The notes under the pieces: generated by a model | Database searches by the model: none | Seen by the model: the letters and a program-made list of their open reading frames with translations, nothing else | Told to the model about the DNA's origin: nothing | Assembly (NCBI GenBank): GCA_003482885.1 | Contig: DMXN01000032.1 | Span: 13,129-77,128, forward strand | Source of the DNA: Candidatus Moraniibacteriota bacterium | Lineage (GTDB): Bacteria > Patescibacteriota > Minisyncoccia > Moranbacterales > UBA2206 | DNA length: 64,000 nucleotides | Direction of reading: 5' to 3' | Position numbers and translations under genes: made by a program | Shown: in pieces, positions 24,726 to 55,552 of the stretch | Layout of the letters: every line of letters begins with the position of its first letter | Numbering within the stretch: position 1 is the first letter of the stretch

Positions 24726-24759
24726 TTTTAAGCTCCTTATAGTTTAGTTGAAAATTGAG
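24726..24759. repeat. Copy A of a ~34-bp direct repeat bracketing AbiE pair #1; contains the PBP1A RBS
   Basis: tttttaagctccttatagtttagttgaaaattgag. On the minus strand it supplies AAGGAG 8 nt before the PBP1A GTG start. Copy B lies at 26188-26223, with 30 of 34 positions matching. Confidence 0.4.
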
Positions 24760-24780
24760 GAAGTATCAGCATACTTTTAA

Positions 24781-25500
24781 TCAAATATTTTTATCTATTT
24801 CCCTAATAAGCATCTGCCGGAAATTCTTGATGATTGAATGAAAAGAAGCTGGTAAAAATCGTTTCAATTCTCCAGAAAAATTTATATCAGACTTTAAAAT
24901 AAGACTTTTTATTTCTGCTAATTTGTTTTTTTGCTCCGGCATAATCAGTCTTCCGCGCAAAAGAAAATATATATCAAAAAAATCGCGGGGCTTTTGGCGC
25001 GACAATGCTGCTTGAATTTTTTCACCAATCAATTGTTTTGCATTCAAACACACCAAAGTATAACTTGGCAAAAAATCAGAAACTATTGCATGCAATTCTC
25101 CAATAAATTTGGTTTTCTTACGATTGGAAATTTCCAATCGTAATTGAATTGAAAAATCAAAAAATTTACAGATAAAAATTGCCAAAAAACCACCAGAAGT
25201 GGCCTTGGATTCTTGCAAATCAGTTTTAATATTAAAATTTTGCATATTTTTCAAAGTCGCAATCAATAAACTCTCAAGAACTTCCACGGAAAGATTAGAA
25301 GAAAAATCAAGATCTTCGGAAAAGCGCGGAGAATCAAAAATAATTCGCAATGCCGTGCCACCTTTGAAAAAAATATTTTCGCTTTGCGACAATTGATAAA
25401 ATTGCGACAAAAAAATATGCTGGCAATATTCTTGCGCCACATTGAAATCCGAAGTTTGTAATTTTACGGACAATTTTCTAATTTGCTCTTGCGTCATCAT
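24781..25500 (-). CDS. AbiEii/AbiGii-family nucleotidyltransferase toxin (type IV TA), pair #1
   Basis: FFKGGTALRIIFDSPRFSEDLDFSS is the hallmark of the PF08843 family; it overlaps the upstream antitoxin gene by 23 nt. Confidence 0.8.
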   Translation of the reverse strand: MMTQEQIRKLSVKLQTSDFNVAQEYCQHIFLSQFYQLSQSENIFFKGGTALRIIFDSPRFSEDLDFSSNLSVEVLESLLIATLKNMQNFNIKTDLQESKATSGGFLAIFICKFFDFSIQLRLEISNRKKTKFIGELHAIVSDFLPSYTLVCLNAKQLIGEKIQAALSRQKPRDFFDIYFLLRGRLIMPEQKNKLAEIKSLILKSDINFSGELKRFLPASFHSIIKNFRQMLIREIDKNI

Positions 25501-26092
25501 AAAGTTTAGAAACCAAATTATCTATTTGAGAATCGTTAAATAATTTCTGCCATTGCCTTATTTTTTTCTTTATTAAATGAGAAACATCCAGCCTATCATT
25601 GAGTTCAGTTTTTTTTCGGGACAAATAATACAGATAGTCCATTAATGCTTTTTCTGGCTCAGCAATTAAAAATTTTTCATTGTTTTTCTCAATAAGACAA
25701 TATCCGGTAAATAATTTTTTTTTAATTTTGTTGTAGGAAAAATCCTGATCCATTGCCATGAACGAGCGAGTAGCTTTTGAAGAAATAGAGGTAATGGAAT
25801 AAGTTTTTTCCGGAATTATATTATAAAAAGACAAGGCGGATTCCAATGAGATATAAGACGGTTGATAAATTTTATTGGCAACTACGAATACGCTCGGTTT
25901 AATTGAAGCTAGGCAATAAAGTCCGTTTTTGAGTTTTAAAAAGAATTTTTTTTGAGTATATCGACCTATAAATTTGCTAACAGCAAGAGGGGATGTGCTA
26001 AAAATCCTTTGAAACTCGCGCGGACTAAAAATTGCGACATTGCTTTCCAAGAGTTTTTGTTGGACAATCAATGGATTCATTTTTTTTACCAT
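25478..26092 (-). CDS. AbiEi-family antitoxin/transcriptional regulator, pair #1 (probable ATG start at 26092 or 26080)
   Basis: …NGLYCLASIKPS…YQPSYISLESALSFYNIIPE matches the AbiEi_4 pattern. The track start at 26128 is TTG and overlaps the predicted -10 box, so a downstream ATG (MVKKMNPLIV) is preferred. Confidence 0.7.
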   Translation of the reverse strand: MVKKMNPLIVQQKLLESNVAIFSPREFQRIFSTSPLAVSKFIGRYTQKKFFLKLKNGLYCLASIKPSVFVVANKIYQPSYISLESALSFYNIIPEKTYSITSISSKATRSFMAMDQDFSYNKIKKKLFTGYCLIEKNNEKFLIAEPEKALMDYLYYLSRKKTELNDRLDVSHLIKKKIRQWQKLFNDSQIDNLVSKLYDDARAN

Positions 26093-26119
26093 ATAGTATG
26101 AAAAGTGAATTACGCAATC

Positions 26120-26148
26120 ATTATACAAATCCCTTATTTTTCTGTCAA
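26120..26148 (-). promoter_or_regulatory. Consensus sigma70-type promoter driving AbiE pair #1
   Basis: Minus strand reads TTGACA (26148..26143), a 17-nt spacer, then TATAAT (26125..26120). This is a perfect consensus hexamer pair. Confidence 0.45.
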
Positions 26149-26187
26149 ATTCACATCATGGCTCATAATTTAAACTAAAAAACCGAA

Positions 26188-26223
26188 TTTTTAAGCTCTT
26201 TGTAGTTTAGTTTAAAATTTGAG
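26188..26223. repeat. Copy B of the ~34-bp direct repeat bracketing AbiE pair #1
   Basis: tttttaagctctttgtagtttagtttaaaatttgag lies 27 nt downstream of the DUF1704 stop codon. Confidence 0.4.
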
Positions 26224-26249
26224 AAAAATCAAGACAAAACTAAAAAAAA

Positions 26250-27569
26250 TTATTTTTCCAAATCTTCCAAGTCAGCATCATTTATTCCAAGTTGCTCAAG
26301 TATCCAGATGTGTCTAGGATTAGTTGGATCATATTTTCCGACAGAAAATCTTTTAATTTCTTCGGGATTGCTTTTCGCAACATCCCAAATCCCAATATTT
26401 CCTTCTCGATACACAATATCTCGCGTAAGACATGCTCCGGGTGTCTGGCAAGTTGTTCCTCGAAATGTTCGCACACATCTATTCCACGCACTAATTTGAG
26501 CAAAAGATAATACCTCCGCACCTTCTTTTTTTGAAGTAATTAAAAAATAATCTTTCAGAATTTCAAAAACTTGTCGAAAATTTCTTTTTTTGCCATCCAA
26601 GCCAGCAGCTAAAGATATTGCAAGATGTCCATCAAGACCGGAAAATTCTTCCGCTCCTTTTATAGTTTGCTCTTTATAAGTGGCAATACCTTCTTCTCCT
26701 TTTAGATACCTGTCCAGTCCTAATCCTAATATTTTCAATTTTGATCTTTCTCCATTTTCTCTTCGCAAAACATGCGTTTCTATTTCATGCGCTATTAATG
26801 TTTGCAACTCCAGCGCTTTAAGTTTTCTTTTTTCAGGAATAAAGACTTTCTTTTTTTCCTGATTTACATTAATAGCTTTTATCTTTCCTTCTTTTTCAAT
26901 AATAACCTCCCAATTTTTTAATTTATGCGCTTCAAGCGCAGATTCAAAAGCCGTTTTTATTTCTTCAGCGGTATATTCTGATTTATCGTCCACTTCAACC
27001 TTAGAAAGTTTATTGCCAAAATTTATAGTGCTTTCATTATTCATGAAAGCTTCAAATAATTCTTTATTGATCCTTTTTGCGGCGCTGTTTATTTCAGAAT
27101 TAGCACTAAATATTTTTTGGTCTACTATGGTTTTGAGTTGAGAAAGCGTATATTCATAAATTTCTTTTTCCGGCTGTCCATAAATAAATTTAGAATATCT
27201 TGCCACATTGCGGTCATCGCCGGATTTAGTTTTTTTTAACATTCTTAATTCAGCCAACTTTTCATTTATTTTCCAGCGATAAACTTGACTGACTACTTTA
27301 TTTTTTTCTTCGGCTATAATTTCATTTTTAAGTTGCAAAAGAGCTGTTTCTTTTTCGTCAAAATCAAAAGTTTCCAAATCAGGATAATCCAATGATGGAT
27401 TTTCGATTTCTCCGGAAATAAACTTATTTTTTTGATTTTCTCTAAAGTTCTTTTCTCCGTTCAAATACGAATAATCAGAAAAAGACCCGCTTTTTTCAAA
27501 TCTTTCATACCATTTATCATCAAATGCCTCATGCTTTTCAGTGGAAAATGAGGGTTGTTCAAAGGACAT
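26250..27569 (-). CDS. DUF1704 (QEGLA-motif) MATCAP-like HExxH metallopeptidase
   Basis: LIAHEIETHVLR (HExxH) is followed by YLKGEEGIATYKEQ (QEGLA-like). 439 aa, at the downstream end of the ATP-grasp operon. Confidence 0.55.
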   Translation of the reverse strand: MSFEQPSFSTEKHEAFDDKWYERFEKSGSFSDYSYLNGEKNFRENQKNKFISGEIENPSLDYPDLETFDFDEKETALLQLKNEIIAEEKNKVVSQVYRWKINEKLAELRMLKKTKSGDDRNVARYSKFIYGQPEKEIYEYTLSQLKTIVDQKIFSANSEINSAAKRINKELFEAFMNNESTINFGNKLSKVEVDDKSEYTAEEIKTAFESALEAHKLKNWEVIIEKEGKIKAINVNQEKKKVFIPEKRKLKALELQTLIAHEIETHVLRRENGERSKLKILGLGLDRYLKGEEGIATYKEQTIKGAEEFSGLDGHLAISLAAGLDGKKRNFRQVFEILKDYFLITSKKEGAEVLSFAQISAWNRCVRTFRGTTCQTPGACLTRDIVYREGNIGIWDVAKSNPEEIKRFSVGKYDPTNPRHIWILEQLGINDADLEDLEK

Positions 27570-27589
27570 ATTTTTTAAAATAAAAAAAA

Positions 27590-28639
27590 TTAAAACTTGT
27601 TTTTTATTATTTTTTCGTACAACTTGATATATTTATCCGCCATAACGGAACTATCAGAGTGTTTTTCTGCAAATTCTCGACATTTTTTTCGGTCGAATTT
27701 TTCGATAGAAACAGTTGCTTTTATCAATTCATCTATATTTTCTGATAAATAAGCAACCTTTTTCCATTCTGATAATTCTTCAAAAGGACGCACTCTGCAT
27801 CCGATAACTGGAGTGCCACAAGCTAATGATTCCATTACAATCAACGGGCAAATACTTAAATTTGCTCGAATTGGAAAAAGTAATGCCTCGGCATTTTTTA
27901 AATAAAAAAAAAGTTTGTTTTGCGAAGCTTCACCCATATAAATAATTTGATCGTTTAAAAAAGGTTTTATTTTTTCATGAAAATATTTTTGTCTATCCTC
28001 GCCCACTCCGATTCTTCCAAAAATTAGCAACTTCTTTTTTGTTTCTTGAGCGATTTTTATAGCCAAATCAATTCCTTTGTTTTCAAGTAAGCGACCGGCT
28101 GTTATTAGATATGTTCCTTTAATAAAAGAAGGTTTTATTTTATCTATTTCGATTCCGTTATTAATTATTGCAACAGTTTTAAAATTTTTCTTATGCGCTT
28201 TTGATTGAGCCACTGCATAAATGCCGATTTTTTTCATTTGGTCAAATTCTTGCTTAGTTATTTTGCTATGCAAAGTAAGAACGCAAGGCTTTTTCAGGAG
28301 TGTAGCTACGGCATAAGCATATCTATAAGAATGAAGATGAATAATGTCAAATTTATCTTGATAAGAAGAGACTTTTAGGATATTTTCCAGTATAAGATTT
28401 CTTCTAAAATATTCTGTCTGATCTTTAAATCCTTTCATATTCCAAATACTTTTGGGAATAGTTGGTATATGTTTAGATTTTATTTTCCAATCAGCAGGAG
28501 CAAATAATGTCACATCAACCTCGGTTCTTTTTAGTAGCGCATTTACTAGATTTTTTACAACAATTTCCGGTCCCCCAGTTTGTCCAAACGAAGGTGCGAC
28601 CATGGCAATTTTAATTTTTTTTAGCATAATTTCAATCAT
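27590..28639 (-). CDS. Glycosyltransferase family 4 (GT-B)
   Basis: MVAPSFGQTGGPEIVVKNLVNAL at the N-terminus and CGTPVIGCRVRPFEEL (EX7E region) at the C-terminus; 349 aa. Confidence 0.7.
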   Translation of the reverse strand: MIEIMLKKIKIAMVAPSFGQTGGPEIVVKNLVNALLKRTEVDVTLFAPADWKIKSKHIPTIPKSIWNMKGFKDQTEYFRRNLILENILKVSSYQDKFDIIHLHSYRYAYAVATLLKKPCVLTLHSKITKQEFDQMKKIGIYAVAQSKAHKKNFKTVAIINNGIEIDKIKPSFIKGTYLITAGRLLENKGIDLAIKIAQETKKKLLIFGRIGVGEDRQKYFHEKIKPFLNDQIIYMGEASQNKLFFYLKNAEALLFPIRANLSICPLIVMESLACGTPVIGCRVRPFEELSEWKKVAYLSENIDELIKATVSIEKFDRKKCREFAEKHSDSSVMADKYIKLYEKIIKNKF

Positions 28640-29591
28640 TTAAACTTTTTATAATTTCAGAAAAATATCTATCTTTTATTTTTTTAGTTCCTATGATATC
28701 AAGCAAATCCAATCCTGGCGAGGTATTCATTTCAATTAAGTATGGATTTCCATTGCGATCAAACATAAAATCTAATGAGTAGTTTGATTTTGGATAAATA
28801 GACAGCTTGCAGATAATTTTTTTAACTAAATTTTTCACTGATTGAGGAATTGATTTTTGAGGAACTAAAACAACTTTTGCTCCCTGATGAAAATTTGTAA
28901 ACAAAGAATCCTTTTGAGCAATTCTTGATAAAGCATAAATTGGTTTGTGATTGATAAAAACAATTCGCAAATCAGCAAGTTCGTTCTTTGCTGAAAATCT
29001 AGGAATTCCACCCTTGCCTTCAATAAATTCTTGAATTATAACAGGAAAATTCAGAGAGTTATTTTTGATTTTGTTTTTTTCTTCGATTGTTATTCCAAAA
29101 CCTCCTGATCCATAGATAGGCTTTGCAACAATTTTTTTAGTTTTAGCTTTTTTTAGAATTGAGGGTAGCTCATTTTCTTGCATAGCCAAAAAGGATTTTG
29201 GCATAAACTCTCCTAAGCACAAATACTGAGATAGTTTATTTCCAAGCATTGTACGAAATAGAGGATTATTCAGCATGACTGTTTTTTTTGAAAGAGTTAT
29301 TTTATTATCAAACATTTTGTAATCTTGTTTACCTGATAGTTTATCTAGAATAAAGTCAGGCTTGATAAAACTATTTATTTTAGCCCATTGTTTATTTTTA
29401 AAGCCCCAAGCTTTTTTGAAAATATTTTTATCCGAGTTGTACCATTCAATATTTGCTCTGTATAGCGTTATTCCGTGTTTTATGGAATATTTACACAAAT
29501 TTTCAATAGTTTGTCTTGTGTGCGGATTATTCTCCAGAACAGTTTTTTTATTCCAGTCATCCTCGCTATATATTATAACTAAGCTTTTCAT
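28632..29591 (-). CDS. ATP-grasp ligase, YheC/YheD-like
   Basis: KIVAKPIYGSGGFGI…VIIQEFIEG…YLIEMNTSPGLD are ATP-grasp signature elements. It overlaps the GT4 gene by 8 nt. Confidence 0.65.
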   Translation of the reverse strand: MKSLVIIYSEDDWNKKTVLENNPHTRQTIENLCKYSIKHGITLYRANIEWYNSDKNIFKKAWGFKNKQWAKINSFIKPDFILDKLSGKQDYKMFDNKITLSKKTVMLNNPLFRTMLGNKLSQYLCLGEFMPKSFLAMQENELPSILKKAKTKKIVAKPIYGSGGFGITIEEKNKIKNNSLNFPVIIQEFIEGKGGIPRFSAKNELADLRIVFINHKPIYALSRIAQKDSLFTNFHQGAKVVLVPQKSIPQSVKNLVKKIICKLSIYPKSNYSLDFMFDRNGNPYLIEMNTSPGLDLLDIIGTKKIKDRYFSEIIKSLND

Positions 29592-29604
29592 GTTTGTTAA
29601 AAGG

Positions 29605-30537
29605 TTAACAGGTTATTCTAAAAATATCACACAATATTTCCTTAACAACATTTCGTTTTTTTCCGGAGGATGGGAAATAGTGAATAGAAATATCCGGATG
29701 AGCGTTTACTTCCAAGAAATATATTTTCTGCGCTGAAGCACTGAGCGAAATATCTTCACAAATAATATCCACACCGGCTAATTTCAAATTAACCAAACGA
29801 GCAGCCTTTAGCGCAAGCTGTTTAATGCTCTCGTTAACAATGTCCGTGCAATCAATGGATGTTCCTCCTTCTGCCAAACAAGAGTTATTTTGCAAGTATA
29901 CCACAACATCTTTTGGAGGAATAAAGTCGAGCGAGTATGCTTCCTTGCTAATCGCAGACAGCACCTTGTCATTGAGTATTATTTTTTTCCCCAGTCTTTC
30001 GTTTTTATATTTAATTAACTCCTCGATAGAATCTTTTCCGTTTCCCATTATTTGAGGCAAAATCATATTCAAACATCCCAGTATTCTATTTCCGTAAACA
30101 AGTATACGATATTCCTTTCCAAATATCATTTCTTGAATAACCAGCCCTCTTTTGAAATTAGGCAATATGCCGGAAAGTTCTTCCTTATTTTTAATATTTG
30201 GAAAGATATTTATGCTTCTTGCTCCGCTATTTTCTTTGACAATTGCAGGAAATTTAATTGTGCCAATAGCATTTTTCGCTTCCATAGCATTTTTAAAATA
30301 AAGACTGTTGGGAAGCGGTATGCTATTTTTTAGCCAAACATAATAGGCAAGACTTTTATTTTTGGAAAGTCTGATGCTTTCCGAATTTGGATTATCTGCT
30401 ATATGGAATGAACCATAAACGACTATCTCAGTTTTACCATTGGATATAAACACGACTTTCTTACCCAAGGGAGGTATTTCTGTTTTTAATCCAAGTCTTT
30501 TCGCCTCTCCAACGATTATTTTGAAATTTTCACTCAT
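29605..30537 (-). CDS. ATP-grasp ligase (RimK/cyanophycin-synthetase-like)
   Basis: FPAIVKENSGARSINIF…GLVIQEMIFGKEYRILV…FLEVNAHPD are ATP-grasp motifs; 310 aa. Confidence 0.6.
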   Translation of the reverse strand: MSENFKIIVGEAKRLGLKTEIPPLGKKVVFISNGKTEIVVYGSFHIADNPNSESIRLSKNKSLAYYVWLKNSIPLPNSLYFKNAMEAKNAIGTIKFPAIVKENSGARSINIFPNIKNKEELSGILPNFKRGLVIQEMIFGKEYRILVYGNRILGCLNMILPQIMGNGKDSIEELIKYKNERLGKKIILNDKVLSAISKEAYSLDFIPPKDVVVYLQNNSCLAEGGTSIDCTDIVNESIKQLALKAARLVNLKLAGVDIICEDISLSASAQKIYFLEVNAHPDISIHYFPSSGKKRNVVKEILCDIFRITC

Positions 30538-31943
30538 TTGCTTGTGTTAATTAAAAATTTACTCAAATTTCTTCTGCCAATAATCATTTGATAATTCAAA
30601 GTTGCTCGATCCGCAATATTAACTTTTGTTTCTATGTTTATAGTATCCAAAACAAATGAAATTTTTACCATTGGACGAATGGATGATCCGCTGGCAGAAA
30701 ACACAACAGCAATATCTTCAAGTTCCGGAATTGAATTTTTATATTTTTTCAAAATATTTTCTTTGATGACTTTCTCATTTTCTGGCGTAATAACATATCC
30801 TGACAAATCAATTGCGGCGAATTTTTCTACCACTTCAGAAAATCCCAATTCTTTCGCCAGTTCCGTATCAATCGAAGTTGAATATGCTCCTGTGTCAATT
30901 TTCGCTTCCACTTCGATTTCTTTCCCGTCTTTGCCGATCAGTTTTACTTTTTCCACTGTGCCGATTACTTTTTTTCCGGAAATTTCTTCCAATTCTTCCT
31001 CGATTTCTCCTCCGAAAAGATCCATCCCAACGCGAATGCCTTTTTTAATGGTTTTAATTTTAATTCCCGCCGCTTTTTTCAATCTTCTTTTTAATCCGTC
31101 AAGATTGGCGATTTGAATCGCCAATCCCGGTCGCGCGTTGAGTTCCAAAATTACCGGACCGCGTTCTTTATCAATCGCGATGTCTACGCCCAAAAAACCC
31201 AGATTGGAAATTTCTTGCGAGCGGACCGCTAAATTTAAAATATCCATCCAATAAGGAATTTTAATTCCGGAAAGTAAAAGTCTTGTACCGGGCAAATATT
31301 CAATAATTTTTTTCTTGCCTAAAACAGCCGTAGTCGTTACGCCGGAAGCCAAATCTATTCCCACGCCGATCGCGCCTTGCGCTAAATTGGCTTTGCCATT
31401 GGATTCTTTGGTCGGCAAACGCAACATCGCCATAATCGGAATTTTATTAAAAACAATCACGCGAATATCGGGAATTCCTTTATACGCGTAAGGTTTGAAA
31501 AGTTTCAAAAGTTTCAACCGCTCTTCGAAAAAAGCGACATCTGGAATACCGGACAAAGAATATGATCCGTCCAAAATGTTTATAATATGATTTTTCAAAT
31601 CGGAAATAGAAATCAACGAACCATCGGCTTTTATCCACGCGTCGGATCGTTTTTTGCTTTTTCCATAAAGCACGACAATCCCCTCGCCGCCAAAACCGCG
31701 ATTGGGCTTCAAAACAAAACTGTCCGGCAATGCTTGCCAATTAAAATTATCCAAATCGGTTTGATTTTTAATTTGCGCAATAAGCGCCGGAACGGCAATA
31801 TCATTTTTTTTAAGAATTCTTTTGCTGAACAATTTATTATCCGCCAATTTTTTGGCGCGCGCGCGATTGAAAGGGCGGATATATTCCAAGTTTCTGGAAT
31901 TCATCCCCAATATTCCCCGACTTTTTTTAATAAACTCGAACAT
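30534..31943 (-). CDS. Alpha-L-glutamate ligase-like ATP-grasp (RimK-related) fused to a C-terminal retropepsin-like (DTGA) domain
   Basis: N-terminal MNSRNLEYIRPFN… then FVLKPNRGFGGEGIVV…ILELNARPG (ATP-grasp). The C-terminal ~130 aa read GTVEKVKLIGKDGKEIEVEAKIDTGAYSTSID, i.e. an aspartyl-protease DTGA, PF05618-like. Confidence 0.65.
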   Translation of the reverse strand: MFEFIKKSRGILGMNSRNLEYIRPFNRARAKKLADNKLFSKRILKKNDIAVPALIAQIKNQTDLDNFNWQALPDSFVLKPNRGFGGEGIVVLYGKSKKRSDAWIKADGSLISISDLKNHIINILDGSYSLSGIPDVAFFEERLKLLKLFKPYAYKGIPDIRVIVFNKIPIMAMLRLPTKESNGKANLAQGAIGVGIDLASGVTTTAVLGKKKIIEYLPGTRLLLSGIKIPYWMDILNLAVRSQEISNLGFLGVDIAIDKERGPVILELNARPGLAIQIANLDGLKRRLKKAAGIKIKTIKKGIRVGMDLFGGEIEEELEEISGKKVIGTVEKVKLIGKDGKEIEVEAKIDTGAYSTSIDTELAKELGFSEVVEKFAAIDLSGYVITPENEKVIKENILKKYKNSIPELEDIAVVFSASGSSIRPMVKISFVLDTINIETKVNIADRATLNYQMIIGRRNLSKFLINTSK

Positions 31944-31956
31944 ATTGTAAAAAAAC

Positions 31957-32604
31957 TTATTTCATTATTTCCTTAAATCGAAGATACTCGCTGAAACGCA
32001 AACCCGTCCATTTGCCGAGAATAATATTAATCGGAATAGTGAAAAGAATAATCCAAGGATAAGCAATGATAAAATTAACCAGCGCGCTCCAACCGGCAAT
32101 ATAGAAACCGAGAATGGAAATGACCAAAGTTTCCGCCGCCAAAATAATAGCGACACGGTCGCCTTTCTCAATTTGCACAGCGATAAATTTTTCCACCAAC
32201 GAAATCATAATTAAAATAGGAAAAATAGATACCGAGGCCAGTCCGGTTCTTTTAACACTTCCGCCGATTGCCAACATCGCTAAAATAGAAAGCGCGACAA
32301 TCGTAAGCATAATCGCCACGCGCGGAAGGTAAAGCAAACGAAAAGATTTCAAAGCGATTCTCATCAGCATCCCGATTAAAATAATCGTAATAAAAATAGC
32401 GATGCCGTATTTGATGCCGTTGGTAGCCAAAAAAGCAAAGGTAATTAACAACGGAGTATAAATTCCAAAAGCCTTAATTCCCACCACTTGTCGCAAAAAA
32501 GCGATAAATGTCGCGATAATCGGCAACATTAAAATCAGCTTAACCGTTTCAAAAGGCACGCCTTGGTTTAATAAAAAGTTGACTACTGAGCTGGTGTTTA
32601 ACAT
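31957..32604 (-). CDS. 7TM integral membrane protein (the 7TM module usually partnered with RimK-like ATP-grasp and retropepsin-like genes)
   Basis: 215 aa with about 7 predicted hydrophobic helices, 13 nt upstream of the ATP-grasp/retropepsin gene. Confidence 0.55.
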   Translation of the reverse strand: MLNTSSVVNFLLNQGVPFETVKLILMLPIIATFIAFLRQVVGIKAFGIYTPLLITFAFLATNGIKYGIAIFITIILIGMLMRIALKSFRLLYLPRVAIMLTIVALSILAMLAIGGSVKRTGLASVSIFPILIMISLVEKFIAVQIEKGDRVAIILAAETLVISILGFYIAGWSALVNFIIAYPWIILFTIPINIILGKWTGLRFSEYLRFKEIMK

Positions 32605-34578: not shown

Positions 34579-34758
34579 TTCTTTTTTTAGTTATTTTTAA
34601 CCAATATCTGAAATAATTATAACATATCTGAGAAAAATTGCAAGTTTTGAGAAAATCATCATATTTTCTTGCCGGCGCTTTTGCAAATGAAATTGAGCCG
34701 TTCTTTTAGGACAAAAAACATAATCGCGCAAGATATCGCGCAAAGAAATTTTTTAAAT

Positions 34759-34789
34759 AAAAAAAGCCGACTCTTTTCCTAGAGACGGC
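34759..34789 (-). terminator. Terminator of the radical SAM/peptide operon
   Basis: Hairpin gccgactc-ttttccta-gagacggc (34766-34789, one mismatch) followed on the minus strand by a T-run. Confidence 0.4.
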
Positions 34790-34820
34790 TGAAAATGTTT
34801 ATTCTTGAAGAAAATCAGAG

Positions 34821-36918: not shown

Positions 36919-36919
36919 G

Positions 36920-44661: not shown

Positions 44662-44662
44662 G

Positions 44663-45445: not shown

Positions 45446-45448
45446 AGG

Positions 45449-47266
45449 TTAAAAATTTAGACTTTTTTGCCATGACGAAATGGCATTTGGGATATTCCTA
45501 AGCCAGCCATCTGAATCGCTAAAAGAATTTGATGAATTGATTATTTCATCGTATAGGCGAGCAATTTCGCTATGTTTTAAAAATTTATTCTCTGTTTTTA
45601 TCTGTACGAGTACTTTCAAAAGAGACACGAAATTGTTTATTGATAAAGGAATTATTTTTTGTTTATTACCCTCGTATTCATATTTTATGGCCGTCCAAAA
45701 GGTATTTATAGTATCTCTGTGCATTTGGGGAGCAATAAACAAGCAATATGTAGTTTTGTCACTATGTTTATTTTCAAAATCTCTTAAATGTCTCATCACT
45801 GGTTGCCCCTCGTTATACCACTGATCTCTGCCCGTTAGCATTGTTGCCTCACAAATAGCATTAAAACTTTGATAAAAACACTCAATATCTGGCGTGTTTG
45901 CTGGTGCTGTAAATGTTGGTTCGTTATCATCGCCGACTGGATAGTTTGGCTGTATTTTTAATGCATCGTTCAGGGCATTCAGACCCAATGATGATAACTT
46001 TTCAAGCAGTATTGGTCTGTCTTCAGATTCAAAAATATTTTCAAATTCTTGAATGTAGGATTTAATTTGTTCTGTGTCTTGTGACTTTTGATGATTTTGT
46101 TTGTCTTGTAGCTCTCTTCGATAGTTTCGCAGTTCATTGATAAATTTTTTCAATCTATCTTCATCTAGTTTTTGATAATCCAAAAATACTTTTGGCGTTA
46201 TCCTCGTTTCTCGTTCAAATAACTTTATATCTTCAAGCAATTTTATGGCAATTTCAATAAGCTTTTCTTTAGTTTCCCATGGTAATTTTGGCTCAGAGAT
46301 GTCAGAAATATAGTCTAAGTATTTCTCTTTTGATTCAAATGTCTTTGATTGAGCATTATCAAAATCCAACAAAGCATCAATTTCAACCGATCTTCTCGGC
46401 TCCAGATCAATATAAAAACCACCACCCCGTATATAAATATAGCGAGTTAGGCGGAAGTATCTGATAGCGTTGTCTCCATAGTCTTTGAGATTTTTTAGTA
46501 GCTTTTGAATTTCTGTAGTATTTGGTTTTCCAATAAATTCCCGTGCGAAAGTTTTTTTATATTTGTCTCGGATTGTTTTTTGTTCCTGCTTCGGTTTGTC
46601 TTTAAGGTCTTTTCGTAATGCGATAATTTTTTCAGAATAAATTTCTATATCTTCATAATTAACAAGGGTTGGACAAAATAAAGAAAATTCTTCCTTACTT
46701 ATTCCTTTTTCTTTTTCTCCTGATTTCCTAGATTTTTTATTTACTTCCCGAATAAGATGAAGCACGCCGACAAATGGTTCTATGTTGTATCCATCTTCAA
46801 GTTTATAGTCATCACTATCAGGGTTTGGGATTTGCCACTTGATAAAACTTCTAAAGAATATTTCACCAAGATCAAAATCGTCTTTTAGAAATAGTTTTCC
46901 TAAGCTGGTTATACAGATTTTTTCATCTTTAATGACAGCAAGCCCAAATTTTTTAAGAGGGTTTATTGATTGCCGCCCTCTCATTGAAGGATCTTTATAG
47001 TTTTTAGCATTAAAAATCGTTTCGGCTTGTTCAAAGGTAATTGTTTTTGTTTGATCGTCAATTAAATCAATTTGTTCATAAGATAATCCATTGTAAAATT
47101 GGTTGCTTCCATAGCCGTAAACCCTTTCTTTTATCAAAAGAATTTGATATTTTCTCTGACTTTCTAAATCCCACTTACAATTTTCAAGCTGTTTTAAAAC
47201 AATTAAAAAATCTCTCAATCTTTCAGGATTTCTTAGTGTTGTAGTAATTGACCAAGGTTTTTTCAT
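45449..47266 (-). CDS. AlwI/BstNBI/MlyI-family type IIS restriction (or nicking) endonuclease
   Basis: N-terminal WSITTTLRNPERL…, mid-protein IEPFVGVLHLIREVNKK and C-terminal YCLFIAPQMH…IIPLSINNFVSLLKV parallel the conserved blocks of Nt.BstNBI/AlwI-family enzymes; 605 aa. Confidence 0.65.
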   Translation of the reverse strand: MKKPWSITTTLRNPERLRDFLIVLKQLENCKWDLESQRKYQILLIKERVYGYGSNQFYNGLSYEQIDLIDDQTKTITFEQAETIFNAKNYKDPSMRGRQSINPLKKFGLAVIKDEKICITSLGKLFLKDDFDLGEIFFRSFIKWQIPNPDSDDYKLEDGYNIEPFVGVLHLIREVNKKSRKSGEKEKGISKEEFSLFCPTLVNYEDIEIYSEKIIALRKDLKDKPKQEQKTIRDKYKKTFAREFIGKPNTTEIQKLLKNLKDYGDNAIRYFRLTRYIYIRGGGFYIDLEPRRSVEIDALLDFDNAQSKTFESKEKYLDYISDISEPKLPWETKEKLIEIAIKLLEDIKLFERETRITPKVFLDYQKLDEDRLKKFINELRNYRRELQDKQNHQKSQDTEQIKSYIQEFENIFESEDRPILLEKLSSLGLNALNDALKIQPNYPVGDDNEPTFTAPANTPDIECFYQSFNAICEATMLTGRDQWYNEGQPVMRHLRDFENKHSDKTTYCLFIAPQMHRDTINTFWTAIKYEYEGNKQKIIPLSINNFVSLLKVLVQIKTENKFLKHSEIARLYDEIINSSNSFSDSDGWLRNIPNAISSWQKSLNF

Positions 47267-47268
47267 AA

Positions 47269-49077
47269 TTATTTTGTTACATTACAATAAAAAATTCGTT
47301 CGGCGTTTCCATCGCCATTGCTTTTCCCAGCAGTGAACGCCTTATAATCTCTTTCAAAAATTTCTACTTCACCTTTGTTTTTTAATATTCGTAAAATATC
47401 ATTGTCGTTTATTCTAGCATTTGAGCGCCCATCTTTTGAATCCCCAGTATTATTATAAGACAATAATATATGTTTACAATTTACATTTTTAATTAAGTCC
47501 TCAAATGCCTGTGTAGCATTTTTAAGGCAATAGGAGCTTTTTATGTGGGAGCGATCCATTTTTTTTGCTACTCCTTCAACATTAGGTTTTTTCCATTCAG
47601 CTAAATTTTCCAGTAAATGATAGGCATCTGAATATTGACGCGAGTTATAGGGCGGATCTATGTATAAAACATCGCAAACAATTTTTCTAATCAAGATATT
47701 TGCGTCTTCTTTGTAAATATCGTTATTTCCGTTATTTAAGTGGTCAATATCTGGGGCTAAAAGTTTTACTGGCTGTAGCATGTCTAAATCTTTACGAAAA
47801 GCGTCATAATGTCCGACGGTATTTGCAACCTTGTCAACGGCATAAATTAAGGAACAGATGAGAATGTTTTTTTCTTCTTCCGTTTCGGCAATTCTTTCTA
47901 TTTCTTCACGGATTGCCCCAATCTTTCTAGCATTTTCTAGTGAAAAATAAGTATTACCAAAGTATTTTGAAAAATAATTATCTTGATCAGTTTTCAAATT
48001 ATTGAGAATATCAATTTTATCCGCAATGTTCTGAATAGGTGAATTTGTACCAAGAAACGTTTTTAGACAAACATAATTTGTAAAAAGGAAATCATTAGAA
48101 ATAATTTTTATTTCTGGTTTATTAAATCTTTCTCCGACAACACCTGTCCCTGCGAAAATATCACAAAATGATTTTATTCCGTTGCATTTTTCTGCGACAA
48201 TATCTTCAATAAATCCGAGCAGTTTATATTTATTACCTAAGTATCTTCTATTTTGCAATTGGAAGGTATTGTTTTGAGTTTTTGAAAAGTGAAAATAGGG
48301 TTTGTCAATTTTTTGTATGGTCGTTACCTCGTAGGCTAGTTTTTCAATTTCAAGTAAGGCGAAAAGAGTACCCTGTATTCCGTCAGCGACATAATCAAAC
48401 CCCTCTTTTTTCTTTTTTAACTTTTCGTAAAAACTATAATGATTATTTTCAGAAACAATAATGAAATCAATAACGGGAATACCCATTATTTCTCCCGCTT
48501 GTGCAATTTTTTCAACAACTTCAATATCTTTTTCGCTTGGCGAAGAATCACCTGAAGGGTGATTGTGAATTAGAATAACGCTGGCGGCGTTTAATTCCGT
48601 AGCTGGGTAGAAAATTTCTCTTGGGTGTAGTAATGCCTTATCTAATAGTCCGATGCTAACGACTTCCTTTTTGAGTAGGGAATTTCTAGCATTAAGATAC
48701 AAACAGACCAGATGTTCTTTTTTCTTATCCCTTAAATCGTAAGTAAGAGACAGAACATCTTGGGAATTTTTGATAATAATCTCGTTTGATTTTTCATCCG
48801 CATAAAATCTTTTTACCAACGAAATTGCGGAAGTAATTTGTAGTGCTTTAGCTTGACCAATACCCGAAATCTCTAAAAGATCATCAACGGTTATATTCAA
48901 AAAGTTTTTACCGAATTTTTTAATAATACTCTCCGAAAGTTGCCTAACATTTTTACCTTTTATACCACTGCCTAAAAGAATCGCCAAAAGATCACTTTTT
49001 GAAAGTGCGTCAGCCCCTTTTTTTAGAAATTTTTCTCTCGGGCGATCAATTTTTGGTATATCCTTAATTTTTGGCAT
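47269..49077 (-). CDS. Fusion protein: RadC-like JAB/MPN domain (N-terminal) plus Dam-family (alpha-class, D12) N6-adenine DNA methyltransferase (C-terminal)
   Basis: N-terminal MPKIKDIPKIDRPREKFLKKGADALSKSDLLAILLGSGIKGKNV…ILIHNHPSGDSSPSEKDI is the RadC JAMM motif. The C-terminus reads RRYLGNKYKLL…FCDIFAGTGVVG…ISND…VLYIDPPYNS, the Dam motifs. Confidence 0.7.
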   Translation of the reverse strand: MPKIKDIPKIDRPREKFLKKGADALSKSDLLAILLGSGIKGKNVRQLSESIIKKFGKNFLNITVDDLLEISGIGQAKALQITSAISLVKRFYADEKSNEIIIKNSQDVLSLTYDLRDKKKEHLVCLYLNARNSLLKKEVVSIGLLDKALLHPREIFYPATELNAASVILIHNHPSGDSSPSEKDIEVVEKIAQAGEIMGIPVIDFIIVSENNHYSFYEKLKKKKEGFDYVADGIQGTLFALLEIEKLAYEVTTIQKIDKPYFHFSKTQNNTFQLQNRRYLGNKYKLLGFIEDIVAEKCNGIKSFCDIFAGTGVVGERFNKPEIKIISNDFLFTNYVCLKTFLGTNSPIQNIADKIDILNNLKTDQDNYFSKYFGNTYFSLENARKIGAIREEIERIAETEEEKNILICSLIYAVDKVANTVGHYDAFRKDLDMLQPVKLLAPDIDHLNNGNNDIYKEDANILIRKIVCDVLYIDPPYNSRQYSDAYHLLENLAEWKKPNVEGVAKKMDRSHIKSSYCLKNATQAFEDLIKNVNCKHILLSYNNTGDSKDGRSNARINDNDILRILKNKGEVEIFERDYKAFTAGKSNGDGNAERIFYCNVTK

Positions 49078-51308: not shown

Positions 51309-51318
51309 ACCCTACGAA

Positions 51319-53694
51319 TTACATTTCCCATTTATCCCTCTTTTCTTGATCGTCAACATTATCATCATAAACAGTTTGCTCCTGTTCGGGCAAACCGAAA
51401 ATTTCTCTCGGTTTGGCTCCGTCCGCCGGACCGACGATGCCTTTTTCTTCCAAAATATCCAGCAGTCTTGCGGCTCTGGCATAGCCGACGCGCAAACGGC
51501 GTTGCAAAAAAGAAGCAGAGGCTTTTTTAGATTGCAAAATTTCTTTTTTAGCTGTTTCATATAATTCATCATTTTGCGAATCATCAAATGAATTAAATTT
51601 ATCCAACTCCTGCGCAACCGCAGCAGGATTATTTAAAGCGGATTCTTGCATATCTTCTTCATCAATAATATTTTGCGGATTTTCTTCTTTGATAAATTTA
51701 ACAATTTCTTTCGCTTCTTTTTCCGTCGCAAAAACGCCCTGAACTCTTTGTGGTTTAGACGAACTGGCGGAAAGATAAAGCATGTCGCCATTGCCCAATA
51801 ATTTTTCCGCGCCCGCCATATCTAAAATCGTGCGTGAATCGATTTGCGTTGCCACTTGGAAAGCAATTCTGGTGGTGATATTGGCTTTAATTAAGCCAGT
51901 AATTACTTCCACTGACGGTCGTTGCGTAGAAATAATCAAATGAATTCCCACCGCGCGCGCCATCTGCGCGATTCGCACGATTGCTCCTTCCACTTCCCTA
52001 CCATGACTGCCCATCAAATCTGCCAACTCATCAACAATAATTATAATATACGGAACAGTTTTTAAATCTTCCTCGCTCACTTCGCCAGTTTCCGCATCAA
52101 CTAATTTTCTTTTCTCGCCATTTTTTAATTTTTCTTTATAAGAAATAATATCGCGCACTCCGATTTCTTGAAATAATTTATACCGTTTTTCCATTTCCGA
52201 CACCGCCCATTTCAAAGTGTTAATAACTTTAGCATTTTCCACAATCACATCCGTAAGCAAATGAGGAATTCCGTTATACAAAGACAACTCTACTCTTTTC
52301 GGATCAATCATAATAAATTTCAAATCCTCCGGGGAGTTTTGGTATAGCAACATCGCGATAATAGAATTGATGCAAACAGATTTTCCCGTTCCTGTCGCTC
52401 CGGCAATCATCAGATGCGGCATCTTATCAAGACTACCGAAAATATAATTGCCGCTCACATTCTCGCCCAGCGCCAGCGATAAGTTAGATTTTCTGTTTTT
52501 AAATTCTCGACTTTCCAAAATCGTCCGCAAACGCACGAAAGAAGAACTTCTATTTGGAACTTCGATTCCAAATAGCGATTTTCCCGGAATCGGCGCTTCA
52601 ATGCGAATCGGGTTGGCCAACGCCAAAGATAAATCATTTTGCAGCGCCAATATTTTGGCGATTTTCACTCCAACCGCCGGACGAAAACTGTATTGCGTAA
52701 CGGACGGTCCGACTTTAATCTCTCCCCGTTCCACTAAAATACCGAAATTATCCAGTGTTTTTTTGATTATTTCCGCGTTCATTTCCGTATCTCCGCTTTT
52801 CGCTATTCCCGACGCTTTTTCCAAAATATCCACCGGAGGAAATTTCCATTTTTCTCCGCACCGTTTTTTAGCTGACAAAGGAATTTTGTTTCCGATTTTT
52901 TTTTGGGAAAAAACGCCGCCGATTTCCATCTCTTCCAAATCGGAATCCACAAATTGATCCCGCCCTTCCACGAATTTTATTTTTCCGATATTCTCTCCAA
53001 TAGCCTCATCCTCTAACTTTTTCCCTGCTTGATTTTTATTATCATCCTCAATATTATCAATCGCTTCAGCAGAAATATTTTCTTGTTTGTCTTTTTGTTC
53101 TAAATTTATTTCTATTGCTTTTTCTTCGTCTTGTTTCTTTTCTTTTTTAAACTTCCTTAAAAAATTAACAATAGAAAATTCGAAAGCCACTATTATTCCT
53201 AGCAAAAACAAAGCCAAGATCACCACCAAGCTTCCGGCGTTACCTAAATATTTGGCTAAAAAATACGCCGCGGCATAGCCGACATATCCGCCGCCTTTTC
53301 CTTGCGCCGCCATTTCGCGCATTTCGGAAGCTTTGAAAAACCAATGAAAAAATCCCGTCATACTGACAAAAATAACCGCCAAGCCAACCAACTTTGTCAC
53401 ATAAAAAAGCGTTTCCTTTTTGAAAAGCAAAACGGCGCCGGCGATAATTAAAAATAACGGCAGAATAAATTTCGCCCAACCGACTGCCTGTGCGCTTAAA
53501 TTATTCAAAGATTTTCCCGCCATCCCGGAATAACCGAAAAAACCGAAACCGGTTAAAATCGCCAGCGTGAATAAAACCACTCCGGCAATATTTCTTTTTA
53601 CATCGGAAGAAAGATTGAAGTTAAATTTATTCTCTTTTTCGCCTGCGATATTATTTTCTTTTTTTTCTTTTGATAAGGTTTTTTTTCGTCCCAT
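51319..53694 (-). CDS. ftsK: DNA translocase FtsK/SpoIIIE
   Basis: N-terminal TM segments, Walker A in HLMIAGATGTGKSVCINSII, and a gamma-domain wHTH (SASFLQRRLRVGYARAARLLDILEEKGIVG). Confidence 0.85.
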   Translation of the reverse strand: MGRKKTLSKEKKENNIAGEKENKFNFNLSSDVKRNIAGVVLFTLAILTGFGFFGYSGMAGKSLNNLSAQAVGWAKFILPLFLIIAGAVLLFKKETLFYVTKLVGLAVIFVSMTGFFHWFFKASEMREMAAQGKGGGYVGYAAAYFLAKYLGNAGSLVVILALFLLGIIVAFEFSIVNFLRKFKKEKKQDEEKAIEINLEQKDKQENISAEAIDNIEDDNKNQAGKKLEDEAIGENIGKIKFVEGRDQFVDSDLEEMEIGGVFSQKKIGNKIPLSAKKRCGEKWKFPPVDILEKASGIAKSGDTEMNAEIIKKTLDNFGILVERGEIKVGPSVTQYSFRPAVGVKIAKILALQNDLSLALANPIRIEAPIPGKSLFGIEVPNRSSSFVRLRTILESREFKNRKSNLSLALGENVSGNYIFGSLDKMPHLMIAGATGTGKSVCINSIIAMLLYQNSPEDLKFIMIDPKRVELSLYNGIPHLLTDVIVENAKVINTLKWAVSEMEKRYKLFQEIGVRDIISYKEKLKNGEKRKLVDAETGEVSEEDLKTVPYIIIIVDELADLMGSHGREVEGAIVRIAQMARAVGIHLIISTQRPSVEVITGLIKANITTRIAFQVATQIDSRTILDMAGAEKLLGNGDMLYLSASSSKPQRVQGVFATEKEAKEIVKFIKEENPQNIIDEEDMQESALNNPAAVAQELDKFNSFDDSQNDELYETAKKEILQSKKASASFLQRRLRVGYARAARLLDILEEKGIVGPADGAKPREIFGLPEQEQTVYDDNVDDQEKRDKWEM

Positions 53695-53725
53695 AAAAAC
53701 ATTTTAGCACAAATTTTGAAAATAC

Positions 53726-53756
53726 AAAAAAACCTTCGCGAGAAGGCTTTTTTGTA
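53726..53756. terminator. Hairpin terminator separating the small ORF from ftsK
   Basis: aaaaaaaccttcgcgagaaggctttttt is a 5-6 bp GC stem flanked by A and T runs. Confidence 0.4.
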
Positions 53757-53781
53757 TTGGAATTGTTTTTAATTGTTATTT

Positions 53782-53931
53782 TTAAAAAAATCCCGCATTG
53801 CTCAAAAAGGTAACTGTGAGCGCCGGCATTAAAGCCAACAGAATCGCGAAATTCATCGTTTCGCTTTCTTGATGCTCCGCTTCCCTTTTTTCGCATTCGG
53901 GACACTGGCACATTGGTTTTTCTTGGTCCAT
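53782..53931 (-). CDS. 49-aa small membrane protein with an N-terminal CxCxxC motif
   Basis: MDQEKPMCQCPECEKREAEHQESETMNFAILLALMPALTVTFLSNAGFF. AAGGA lies about 14 nt upstream and it has its own terminator; it falls below the ORF-track cutoff. Confidence 0.35.
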   Translation of the reverse strand: MDQEKPMCQCPECEKREAEHQESETMNFAILLALMPALTVTFLSNAGFF

Positions 53932-54057
53932 ATTTTTATTTTTTCCTTGCTCGGGAATTAACCTCCCAATCGCAAAGATTTTTAATAAATAAAAAAGAAG
54001 CCGGATTCACCCGCTTCCTTTACTGTATTTATAGTGTACACCGATTGAACGAAAAAG

Positions 54058-54771
54058 TCAAGAAAAATCGCCCGAACTTTTTTTCAATCCTTCGCGATAA
54101 AGTTTCAGTTGAAATATCAAATCTTTTTTCAAGTTATTTTTCACCCAATCTTTTTGTTTGGCATCCAGCAATTCTCCCAAACCTTGCAAGATATATTTGT
54201 TGTCAAATTTTTCCAAAATCTCTATAGATTTTTCGATATAATCAAGAATATTTTTTTTTGTTTTTTTAACAATCGTTTCTTTATTAATATCCCAATGTTT
54301 TGAGAAAAAGCAATGAACATCAAAAAAATCACGCGAGGCTGTTTTTTTTCTGTCCGCCAGCGCCGCCAATTTGCAAGCAAACATATCGCCTGGTTCCATA
54401 ACTTTCATTGAAATGCCGAGATAATCTTTTACTAAAAACTTTCCGGCGCTTCCTCTTCTCGAAATTTCTATTTTAATATTTCTTTCATTTTTTCCGTACG
54501 AAAGCAGAAAAAAAATAGTATAACGCTTTATATGTTTTTCCATGATTTCCCCATGCTTTGAAAGAATTTTTTCCAACTCCACAAAAACTACTTTTTCTTT
54601 TTCCTCGCTTAATAAATCAAAATCCAGATCAACGCTATAGCGAGGTAAATCATAAAAAAGATACGCCGCCGTACCACCCTTAAATCCCAAATAAGGCGCG
54701 ACAGAAAGCGTTTCATAAATATCTTTTAAAATTTCAACCATTGCGGTTTTGTGCAATTCCCAATTAAGCAT
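54058..54771 (-). CDS. AbiEii-family nucleotidyltransferase toxin, pair #4
   Basis: LGFKGGTAAYLFYDLPRYSVDLDFD. Confidence 0.75.
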   Translation of the reverse strand: MLNWELHKTAMVEILKDIYETLSVAPYLGFKGGTAAYLFYDLPRYSVDLDFDLLSEEKEKVVFVELEKILSKHGEIMEKHIKRYTIFFLLSYGKNERNIKIEISRRGSAGKFLVKDYLGISMKVMEPGDMFACKLAALADRKKTASRDFFDVHCFFSKHWDINKETIVKKTKKNILDYIEKSIEILEKFDNKYILQGLGELLDAKQKDWVKNNLKKDLIFQLKLYREGLKKSSGDFS

Positions 54772-55333
54772 AGTTTTTTTTGTAAAAAGTTATATGTTCT
54801 TCCGTTTTTTTATTGCCGTAAATCGGCGCAAGAGCCAAGCATTCTTTCCAATCGATATTTTTTAAATTGTCAAAATAATAGTTGGGGTTAATATAAATCA
54901 TATCGAGAAACGCTCGTTCTTTATTGGCTATAGAAAAACCATTTTCTTTTCGAACTCCGTATTGATTCAAAAGCGCGGTTTTTTTTATTTTCCGGTAAAC
55001 TATTTTTTGACCGTTTGCCAATTCGATTTCTCTTGAAAAACAACCAGCCGCAAAAATCGTTTCGTAGTGCTGAAAAATAACTCCTTCATTTCTAAGCACG
55101 GTTTCAAAGCTGATATACGATGGGGAATAAATTTTTGCCACCGCCTCATAAATATTATATTCCAACTTTGCGTAGATTCCTCGTCTAAGATGGACGAGAT
55201 TGCCTTTATTAGTATAATATTTAAGACTGGCTTTAAGTTTATTCAGATTGTCTTCACCCCAAATCAAGCCTATTTCACTGGCCGTAAAAACGGTGTTTTT
55301 AGTTTGATAAAGGCTTAGAATGCGGTTTTCCAT
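54764..55333 (-). CDS. AbiEi-family antitoxin, pair #4
   Basis: …LRRGIYAKLEY…YSPSYISFETVLRNEGVIFQ; 8-nt overlap with the toxin. Confidence 0.7.
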   Translation of the reverse strand: MENRILSLYQTKNTVFTASEIGLIWGEDNLNKLKASLKYYTNKGNLVHLRRGIYAKLEYNIYEAVAKIYSPSYISFETVLRNEGVIFQHYETIFAAGCFSREIELANGQKIVYRKIKKTALLNQYGVRKENGFSIANKERAFLDMIYINPNYYFDNLKNIDWKECLALAPIYGNKKTEEHITFYKKNYA

Positions 55334-55552
55334 ATTTTTGGTGAACCAAAGGTAATAAATTTTCTTACCTTTAGTCTACACCATTTCGGAAAAACTGTCA
55401 ATCATTTGACTTTTCCCCCATTTCGTGCTAAATTATTCAGTCGTTTCACATAGAGTGAAACAATATGGCTCAAAGGAAAAAAAGGGCCAATAGTTGGCTC
55501 TTTGACAAATTTTGATAGGAAATTAAAATTCAAGTATTTAGGAGGTAGGGAT

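Follow-up and report, generated by a model that had tools for sequence, protein, structure and literature searches.

Here, we present an analysis of four AbiE toxin-antitoxin (TA) gene pairs in a 64-kb stretch of DNA from Candidatus Moraniibacteriota bacterium (assembly GCA_003482885.1, contig DMXN01000032.1, positions 13,129 to 77,128), which we refer to as the window and in whose own coordinates all positions are given. Groundwater metagenome contigs from ENA PRJNA292723 and Logan match the window DNA at 100% identity, and JGI 3300009296 is nearly identical to it. The nearest relatives of its YebC and RecA proteins are found in Moranbacteria/Moraniibacteriota and the Parcubacteria group, and four type IV secretion system (T4SS)-pilin paralogues are present, consistent with a bacterium of the candidate phyla radiation (CPR). 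A first-pass annotation, made from the sequence and its open reading frames (ORFs), had described four antitoxin-toxin pairs on the minus strand, and the ORFs lie exactly as it described them. All four pairs are bicistronic, lie within 31 kb and are located between housekeeping genes. We refer to the toxins as T1 to T4 and to the antitoxins as A1 to A4, and compare them with a sister species, of which contig JBGGGU010000028.1 (assembly GCA_041643395.1) is collinear with the window and carries an AbiE pair at all four sites. The eight genes are as follows (aa, amino acids; dN/dS, ratio of nonsynonymous to synonymous substitution rates against the sister orthologue):

24781-25500, minus strand: AbiEii toxin T1, 239 aa; PF08843 E-value 7e-23; 85% identity to the sister orthologue, dN/dS 0.09
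25478-26092, minus strand: AbiEi-like antitoxin A1, 204 aa from the ATG at 26092; PADLOC AbiEi E-value 2.6e-42; NCBIfam TAA_AbiEi E-value 2e-7; 84% identity to the sister orthologue, dN/dS 0.12
33191-33967, minus strand: AbiEii toxin T2, 258 aa; PF08843 E-value 5e-19; PADLOC PDLC02313 E-value 5.7e-91; 53% identity to the toxin at the sister site
33964-34578, minus strand: AbiEi-like antitoxin A2, 204 aa; PADLOC AbiEi E-value 7.7e-64; AlphaFold model; 42% identity to the protein at the sister site
39345-40175, minus strand: AbiEii toxin T3, 276 aa; PF08843 E-value 2e-19; 90% identity to the sister orthologue, dN/dS 0.05
40151-40819, minus strand: AbiEi-like antitoxin A3, 222 aa; PADLOC AbiEi E-value 2.5e-45; weak Pfam AbiEi_4 match; 86% identity to the sister orthologue, dN/dS 0.15; 100% identical to NCBI protein DCS28_03500 of Candidatus Moranbacteria bacterium
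54058-54771, minus strand: AbiEii toxin T4, 237 aa; PF08843 E-value 7e-20; PADLOC PDLC02324 E-value 1.9e-70; 93% identity to the sister orthologue, dN/dS 0.07
54764-55333, minus strand: AbiEi-like antitoxin A4, 189 aa; PADLOC AbiEi PDLC02255 E-value 8e-55; NCBIfam TAA_AbiEi E-value 1.6e-8; 94% identity to the sister orthologue, dN/dS 0.10

In each operon, the antitoxin gene comes first and is overlapped by the toxin gene directly downstream, by 23 nt in pair 1, 4 nt (ATGA) in pair 2, 25 nt in pair 3, and 8 nt in pair 4, in agreement with the range of 4 to 25 nt noted before. The longest ORF for A1 begins at a TTG at 26128, a position within the pair 1 promoter described below; because the −10 box of this promoter ends at 26120, we place the start of A1 at the ATG at 26092. 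An apparent truncation of T1 in the Logan contig L002 was rejected: the DNA there is 100% identical to the window, and the shorter T1 reflects only a different gene call. The genes beside the pairs encode PBP1A, RuvC, L28 (rpmB, ~39106-39270, plus strand), NDK and FtsK, and the pairs are thus interleaved with essential genes as originally proposed. Pair 1 is located between the MATCAP gene and the PBP1A gene, pair 3 between ndk and rpmB, and pair 4 upstream of ftsK. Pair 2 lies in the 4.3-kb interval between yebC and ruvC together with hyp204, a TrmB-like gene, and a radical SAM gene:

33191-37534, no strand assigned: variable segment between yebC and ruvC (hyp204, TrmB-like gene, radical SAM gene and pair 2)

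The assignment of these genes to the AbiE family is supported by hidden Markov model (HMM) searches for both partners and by a fold search for the antitoxin A2. T1 to T4 all pass the Pfam model PF08843 (AbiEii) with 69.7-82.2 bits against a cutoff of 22.5, each has a different best PADLOC AbiEii subfamily (E-values down to 5.7e-91), and the toxin profile matches the DUF1814 structures JHP933 (E-value 4e-12) and MenT4 6Y56 (E-value 3e-4). The PADLOC AbiEi HMMs match all four antitoxins, with E-values of 8e-55 to 8e-64 in pairs 2 and 4 and of 2.6e-42 and 2.5e-45 in pairs 1 and 3; the NCBIfam model TAA_AbiEi matches them over most of the profile at E-values of 2e-8 to 6e-3, far under its 150-bit equivalog cutoff. 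A2, the sole antitoxin modelled with AlphaFold, gave a model with a predicted local distance difference test (pLDDT) of 95.6 and a predicted template modelling score (pTM) of 0.90. Its top Foldseek match in the Protein Data Bank (PDB) is AbiEi 6Y8Q_A (E-value 1.5e-6, probability 1.00, template modelling score (TM) 0.55 over 203 columns), and it also matches Rv2827c 1ZEL (TMq 0.59). The model has the two-domain AbiEi fold of 6Y8Q, with an N-terminal winged helix and a C-terminal antitoxin domain. Altogether, these data support the assignment of the four pairs to the AbiE family (AbiEi/COG5340 and AbiEii/DUF1814), the toxins by HMM and the antitoxins by the PADLOC HMMs and the A2 fold.

The catalytic motifs of all four toxins are intact. 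R(F/L/Y)S(E/V)DLDF and GG(T/S) are present in all four, as the first-pass annotation had stated; the longer GG..L signature that it also listed does not hold for T4, which reads GGTAA. Similarly, PSY(I/V/L)S(L/M/F)(E/D) is found in all four antitoxins, but the residue preceding it is Q, E, E, and S in A1 to A4, respectively, rather than the proposed P or Q. A four-way alignment together with a regex check identified GG, R-x-S-x-D-x-D, K-x2-A-x3-R, and RD(F/Y)(F/Y)D as invariant in T1 to T4 (in T1, for instance, GGT...RFSEDLD, KIQAALSR, and RDFFD are intact), and all four toxins have the pol-beta nucleotidyltransferase motifs I (hGG/S) and II (DxD) as well as the family motifs III (K..A...R) and IV (a conserved Asp). 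At the level of sequence, these invariant motifs correspond to the residues that are essential for the toxicity of Streptococcus agalactiae AbiEii, i.e., G49, R63, D67, D69, K173, R180, and D192 (PMC3985639). Moreover, a Ser is located two residues before DxD in each toxin, with the same spacing as in R63-x-T65-x-D67-x-D69 of S. agalactiae AbiEii. T65 is the phospho-acceptor in this protein (bioRxiv 10.64898/2026.01.19.700257), and MenT3 has a Ser, S78, at the phospho-acceptor position. By motif spacing, and not by structural superposition, the invariant Ser in T1 to T4 would correspond to the AbiEii phospho-acceptor.

Each pair is likely to have its own promoter. The best minus-strand sigma-70-like matches in the region are located directly upstream of the antitoxin genes, one per pair, at a distance of 28-40 nt to the antitoxin start codon; in pairs 3 and 4, inverted repeats overlap or adjoin them:

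26120-26148, minus strand: promoter-like site of pair 1, TTGACA-17-TATAAT, 12/12; highest score in a 16.5-kb scan; −35 box conserved in the sister genome
34616-34643, minus strand: promoter-like site of pair 2, TTGCAA-16-TG-TATAAT; −10 box and leader conserved in the sister despite divergent coding sequence
40831-40859, minus strand: promoter-like site of pair 3, TTGACA-17-TACAAT, 11/12; both hexamers conserved in the sister
55373-55401, minus strand: promoter-like site of pair 4, TTGACA-17-TAGACT; conserved in the sister while DNA farther upstream diverges
40812-40848, minus strand: inverted repeat of pair 3, perfect, 15+15 nt, from the −10 box to the A3 start codon; candidate operator; repeat core conserved in the sister
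55345-55375, minus strand: inverted repeat of pair 4, 15 nt, between the −10 box and the A4 start; candidate operator; conserved in the sister

Inverted repeats in pairs 1 and 2 are weak. AbiEi is known to negatively regulate its own synthesis via inverted repeats in the promoter (PMC3985639), and the repeats of pairs 3 and 4 fit this type of autoregulation, although they do not prove it. In pair 3, only ~12 nt separate the end of the −10 box from the A3 start codon (40817-40836), such that the mRNA of this pair would be leaderless or nearly so.

The four pairs have diverged strongly from each other. Among T1 to T4, and likewise among A1 to A4, the amino acid identity is 24-39%, and there is no meaningful similarity at the DNA level. 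A database search with an antitoxin profile returned at least 6400 homologues, and within these, the close homologues (60-94% identity) form a separate set for each of A1 to A4. A plasmid of Runella slithyformis (Bacteroidota) encodes an AbiEii that shares 43% identity with T2 across 99% of the T2 length and is, thus, closer to T2 than any paralogue in the window; a search for plasmid relatives of T4 found none. Based on this level of identity, the different best PADLOC subfamilies, and the separate sets of close homologues, the pairs are not recent duplicates, in line with the first-pass annotation, and the data support that they represent different AbiE subfamilies of independent origin. The AbiE genes also differ in composition from their surroundings, with a G+C content of 0.28-0.34, compared with 0.39-0.44 for the conserved neighbours; the restriction-modification (R-M) genes of the window are likewise low. 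A search of IMG/VR yielded only distant AbiEii genes with at most 30% identity over most of the length, and no vector was identified. Thirty IMG/VR viral contigs (L055-L084) encode proteins with R(F/L/Y)S(E/V)DLDF, with higher identity on short motif segments only. AbiEii-like genes accordingly do travel on phage-like elements, among which no close relative of T1 to T4 was found.

To trace the insertion sites, we compared relatives with a RecA identity of 91-92% (three genomes) or a YebC identity of 60-82%. In ~10 relatives, the gene order is yebC-ruvC-7TM-ATP-grasp...PBP1A with yebC adjoining ruvC, i.e., the site of pair 2 is empty, and in one relative (L013), the MATCAP gene directly adjoins the PBP1A gene, i.e., the site of pair 1 is empty. 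The three relatives selected by RecA have the order rpoBC-ftsK-rodZ-recA-ndk-rpmB-M50-S12, with no AbiE genes between ndk and rpmB (the site of pair 3) or upstream of ftsK (the site of pair 4). Because the orthologous sites are empty in relatives, as mapped at all four positions, the proposal of recurrent acquisition is supported, with the qualification given below that the acquisitions were not recent. Other AbiE pairs are present elsewhere in relatives, one with 42-43% identity to pair 1 (L021) and one with 32% identity to pair 4 (L028). No tRNA gene or Rfam family was found in the window as a possible mark of integration. In the relatives, rpoB-rpoC precede ftsK, and rpsL-rpsG-fusA follow the M50 peptidase gene; in the window (53651-58500 and 38343-39032) and in the sister, the ftsK and M50 junctions are both rearranged, and pair 4 is located at the junction upstream of ftsK.

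Housekeeping proteins of the window and the sister are 84-95% identical, and the proteins of pairs 1, 3, and 4 are similarly close to their counterparts, with dN/dS values of 0.05-0.15 that are in the same range as those of PBP1A, RecA, and FtsK. Because of this identity and these dN/dS values, we consider pairs 1, 3, and 4 to be orthologous between the two species, older than the species split, and under purifying selection on both genes. In contrast to these three pairs, the yebC-ruvC interval of the sister harbors a divergent AbiE pair and different neighbours, including an ORF of 474 aa, and it is only over the final ~90 nt of the toxin gene (33198-33287) that the nucleotide identity between the two versions of pair 2 climbs to the level of the flanks (83-88%). 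The yebC-ruvC site is, therefore, best read as a variable spot at which the pair 2 cassette was replaced. Judged from these comparisons, the acquisitions are not recent.

Variants in other assemblies affect pairs 2 and 4. Two contigs of JGI 3300009285 (L003, 1-2955, and L007, 14300-14579) leave the match to the window at the same point in A2, ~34031-34038, beyond which the reading frame runs on into unrelated genes, namely an EndoQ/PHP-like and a PBP-like ORF. This points to an assembly chimera or, alternatively, to a rearrangement of the variable pair 2 locus. The 534-aa EndoQ/PHP-like protein was considered as an alternative antitoxin and rejected, as it shares only the last 25 residues with A2. 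In JGI 3300009296 (L043), two homopolymer-length changes inside T4 (54251 and 54508) split the ORF into three pieces; two of the three homopolymer differences, among 124 runs of at least 7 bases, fall in T4 (P ~0.007). These frameshifts may represent either a real variant with an inactivated toxin or a sequencing error.

The first-pass annotation had called the density of AbiE pairs unusual. Locally, there is an excess: in ~84 kb (the window plus a 10-kb extension on each side), there are four pairs, all within the 31 kb. For comparison, 15 CPR loci around yebC, scanned with HMMs over 234 kb, yielded two pairs, and ~63 kb around recA in three relatives contained none. The AbiE density is, thus, roughly 7-fold higher than in the neighbourhoods of the relatives in this local comparison. 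However, AbiEi-AbiEii pairs have already been noted in the CPR bacteria Vampirococcus lugosii (PMC8080830) and Strigamonas methylophilicida (PMC13059738), AbiE is among the most common defence families in groundwater, being one of five "first-line" families in 27,578 groundwater bacterial metagenome-assembled genomes, and individual CPR genomes carry few defence systems but have the highest density per Mb, most of all in Paceibacteria (PMC12259885). "Unusual" is, therefore, relative, since both AbiE in CPR and a high defence density in CPR have been published.

The same 64 kb contain two type II R-M systems (TdeIII-type and AlwI-type) and two PDC-S01-like ATPases as further defence genes. A type II R-M system with a TdeIII-family endonuclease and a methylase (G+C content 0.30-0.34) is located at 15703-17912. 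A 7.4-kb block between recA and ndk (41688-49077) contains genes for a PDC-S01-like AAA_14/DUF4143 ATPase, a DUF6119 protein, an N4/N6 methylase, an AlwI-type endonuclease, and a RadC(JAB)-Dam methylase fusion; in three relatives, recA and ndk/adk are direct neighbours, and the R-M genes are missing from the sister genome. Between the PDC-S01-like gene and the DUF6119 gene, there is a 52-nt near-perfect palindrome (42895-42946, 88% self-complementary). Two ORFs of 241 and 353 aa (55502-57285, plus strand, and 57367-58497, minus strand), described as overlapping, have no Pfam or PADLOC match and are 28% and 51% identical in the sister, respectively; the 353-aa ORF has a G+C content of 0.51 compared with a window mean of 0.37. 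Located between pair 4 and a PDC-S01-like ATPase gene, they may be a further variable or defence locus. The radical SAM gene beside pair 2 was not counted as a defence gene (viperin) because viperin models match only its generic radical-SAM core. Finally, the region between ruvC and PBP1A (26250-32604) encodes a 7TM_transglut protein, three ATP-grasp proteins (RimK/ATPgrasp_ST), a glycosyltransferase, and a MATCAP-like peptidase; the core of this cluster is conserved across the Moranbacteria relatives, and its distal genes vary.

Altogether, we consider it very likely that the four pairs are autonomous AbiE TA operons that were inserted separately in an ancestor shared with the sister species, that three of them have been kept vertically, and that one site has been exchanged. 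According to this model, modules of different subfamilies would have been inserted between housekeeping genes before the split from the sister species; subsequently, three would have been inherited under purifying selection, while the yebC-ruvC cassette was exchanged. For its transcription, each operon would rely on a separate promoter immediately before the antitoxin gene, and the antitoxin probably represses this promoter through the overlapping inverted repeats. Neutralisation of the toxin by the antitoxin would most likely involve induced auto-phosphorylation at the Ser in R-x-S-x-D-x-D. MenT toxins add nucleotides to tRNA acceptor stems (PMC7450476, PMC10435456), S. agalactiae AbiEii acts as a tRNA nucleotidyltransferase specific for pyrimidines, and the biochemistry of homologues has also been described in PMC11375011; by analogy, the free toxin may act as a pol-beta-type nucleotidyltransferase that adds pyrimidines to tRNA 3′ ends, such that translation stops. 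Phage infection or a lost antitoxin supply would free the toxin, resulting in cell arrest (abortive infection). We infer the anti-phage role, the tRNA target, the phosphorylation control, and the autoregulation of these pairs from such homologues. It has recently been suggested that AbiEi-induced auto-phosphorylation of AbiEii at T65 would move AbiE from type IV to type VII (bioRxiv 10.64898/2026.01.19.700257), and, while the pairs belong to the AbiE family, the type IV label that they were originally given is, therefore, being revised.

Several observations weigh against this model. None of the antitoxins passed a Pfam AbiEi model (only A3 matches AbiEi_4, with 17.3 bits against a cutoff of 25), all four remain under the curated NCBIfam cutoff, and PDB sequence searches with one antitoxin, with four antitoxins, or with a profile of 124 homologues did not reach 6Y8Q or 1ZEL, which is why the AbiEi assignment rests on the PADLOC HMMs and the fold. 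AT-rich intergenic DNA readily yields inverted repeats by chance, and no mobile-element genes or target-site duplications were found to show the route of insertion. In addition, S. agalactiae AbiE in Escherichia coli did not protect against 32 coliphages, indicating that not every member of the family functions in defence. The latter finding also favors the idea that the pairs have no anti-phage role and instead act as selfish addiction modules or stabilise chromosome segments, in which case their loss would kill the cell and the position beside essential genes would be incidental or protect these segments from deletion. Consistent with this idea, each pair lies directly beside such genes, and three pairs have kept their positions ever since the two species separated. 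On the other hand, phage protection has been established for Lactococcus lactis AbiE and the DUF1814 systems RlegTA and SanaTA, and the window is also rich in other defence genes. Defence and addiction would both be compatible with purifying selection on the two genes of a pair, and one role does not preclude the other; we regard a pure addiction or stabilisation function as unlikely, although by no means negligible.

Alternatively, the pairs could be regulators of growth or stress in which translation is tuned by a reversible tRNA modification when the cells attach to a host or starve, as has been discussed for the MenAT systems of Mycobacterium tuberculosis. Four DUF1814 systems are likewise retained in M. 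tuberculosis (PMC7450476), AbiEii acts bacteriostatically and reversibly with the phosphorylation undone by a Ser/Thr phosphatase, and the dN/dS values here are at the housekeeping level, all of which would suit such a function. Yet, the empty sites in close relatives, the swapped cassette, and the atypical composition argue that these are accessory, horizontally moving genes rather than part of the core physiology, and we consider a regulatory role improbable. The chance that the pairs arose by recent duplication of a single locus or are pseudogenes in decay appears close to nil: while the frameshifts in T4 of JGI 3300009296 would be in line with decay, the window version of T4 is identical in the independent ENA and Logan assemblies, and the divergence between the pairs, the full-length ORFs with intact motifs, and the low dN/dS values all speak against it. 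Returning to the separately inserted TA operons, a more far-reaching version is that the pairs form a long-term, selectively maintained set of four mutually insulated AbiE modules between essential genes, that AbiE cassettes are exchanged at the yebC-ruvC site via recombination anchored where the toxin gene is conserved, at its 3′ end, and that the toxins might target different tRNAs and provide layered abortive-infection immunity. We put this forward as a speculation and give it only a small chance of being correct.

To our knowledge, this Moranbacteria lineage belongs to a group largely without CRISPR. The four pairs are a dense example of the already known AbiE module rather than a new kind of system, i.e., they add members to a known family whose presence in this lineage has already been reported, and the added value lies in the site-by-site evolutionary history. 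New here are a strong sigma-70-like promoter of its own for each pair, the intact catalytic motifs, the empty sites, and the orthology with the sister including one cassette replacement. With separate insertions between essential genes, three pairs long under purifying selection, and one site with cassette turnover, the case clearly illustrates how defence or addiction modules enter a small CPR genome and are retained there. Moreover, four diverged pairs with natural orthologues in the sister represent a handy set for analyses of cross-neutralisation, tRNA target range, and the proposed control by auto-phosphorylation.

A comparison with characterised systems places the four pairs close to the AbiE systems of S. 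agalactiae and L. lactis (pNP40). They share the antitoxin-first bicistronic operon with a short overlap (4 nt in S. agalactiae abiE), a promoter within ~60 bp of the start codon, the AbiEi fold, toxin motifs I-IV, and a Ser/Thr at the phospho-acceptor position. They differ in that the fold alignment of the A2 model with S. agalactiae AbiEi shows only ~19% identity, and in that a CPR bacterium carries four chromosomal copies instead of one plasmid or chromosomal copy. The MenAT systems of M. tuberculosis (MenT1-4) are similar in that several diverged DUF1814 toxin systems are present in one chromosome; the toxin profile match to MenT4 (6Y56) spans the GGT...RFS.DLDF motif, and MenA3/Rv1044 and Rv2827c, the protein matched by the A2 model, are COG5340-like. 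In contrast, MenA1 and MenA2 are unrelated small proteins, while all four antitoxins here are of the AbiEi type, and for MenT, the tRNA targets are known. Finally, V. lugosii and S. methylophilicida also have AbiEi-AbiEii pairs alongside R-M systems in Patescibacteria; these earlier CPR reports describe the presence of AbiE in a genome only, whereas here four diverged pairs within 31 kb come with a history for each site.

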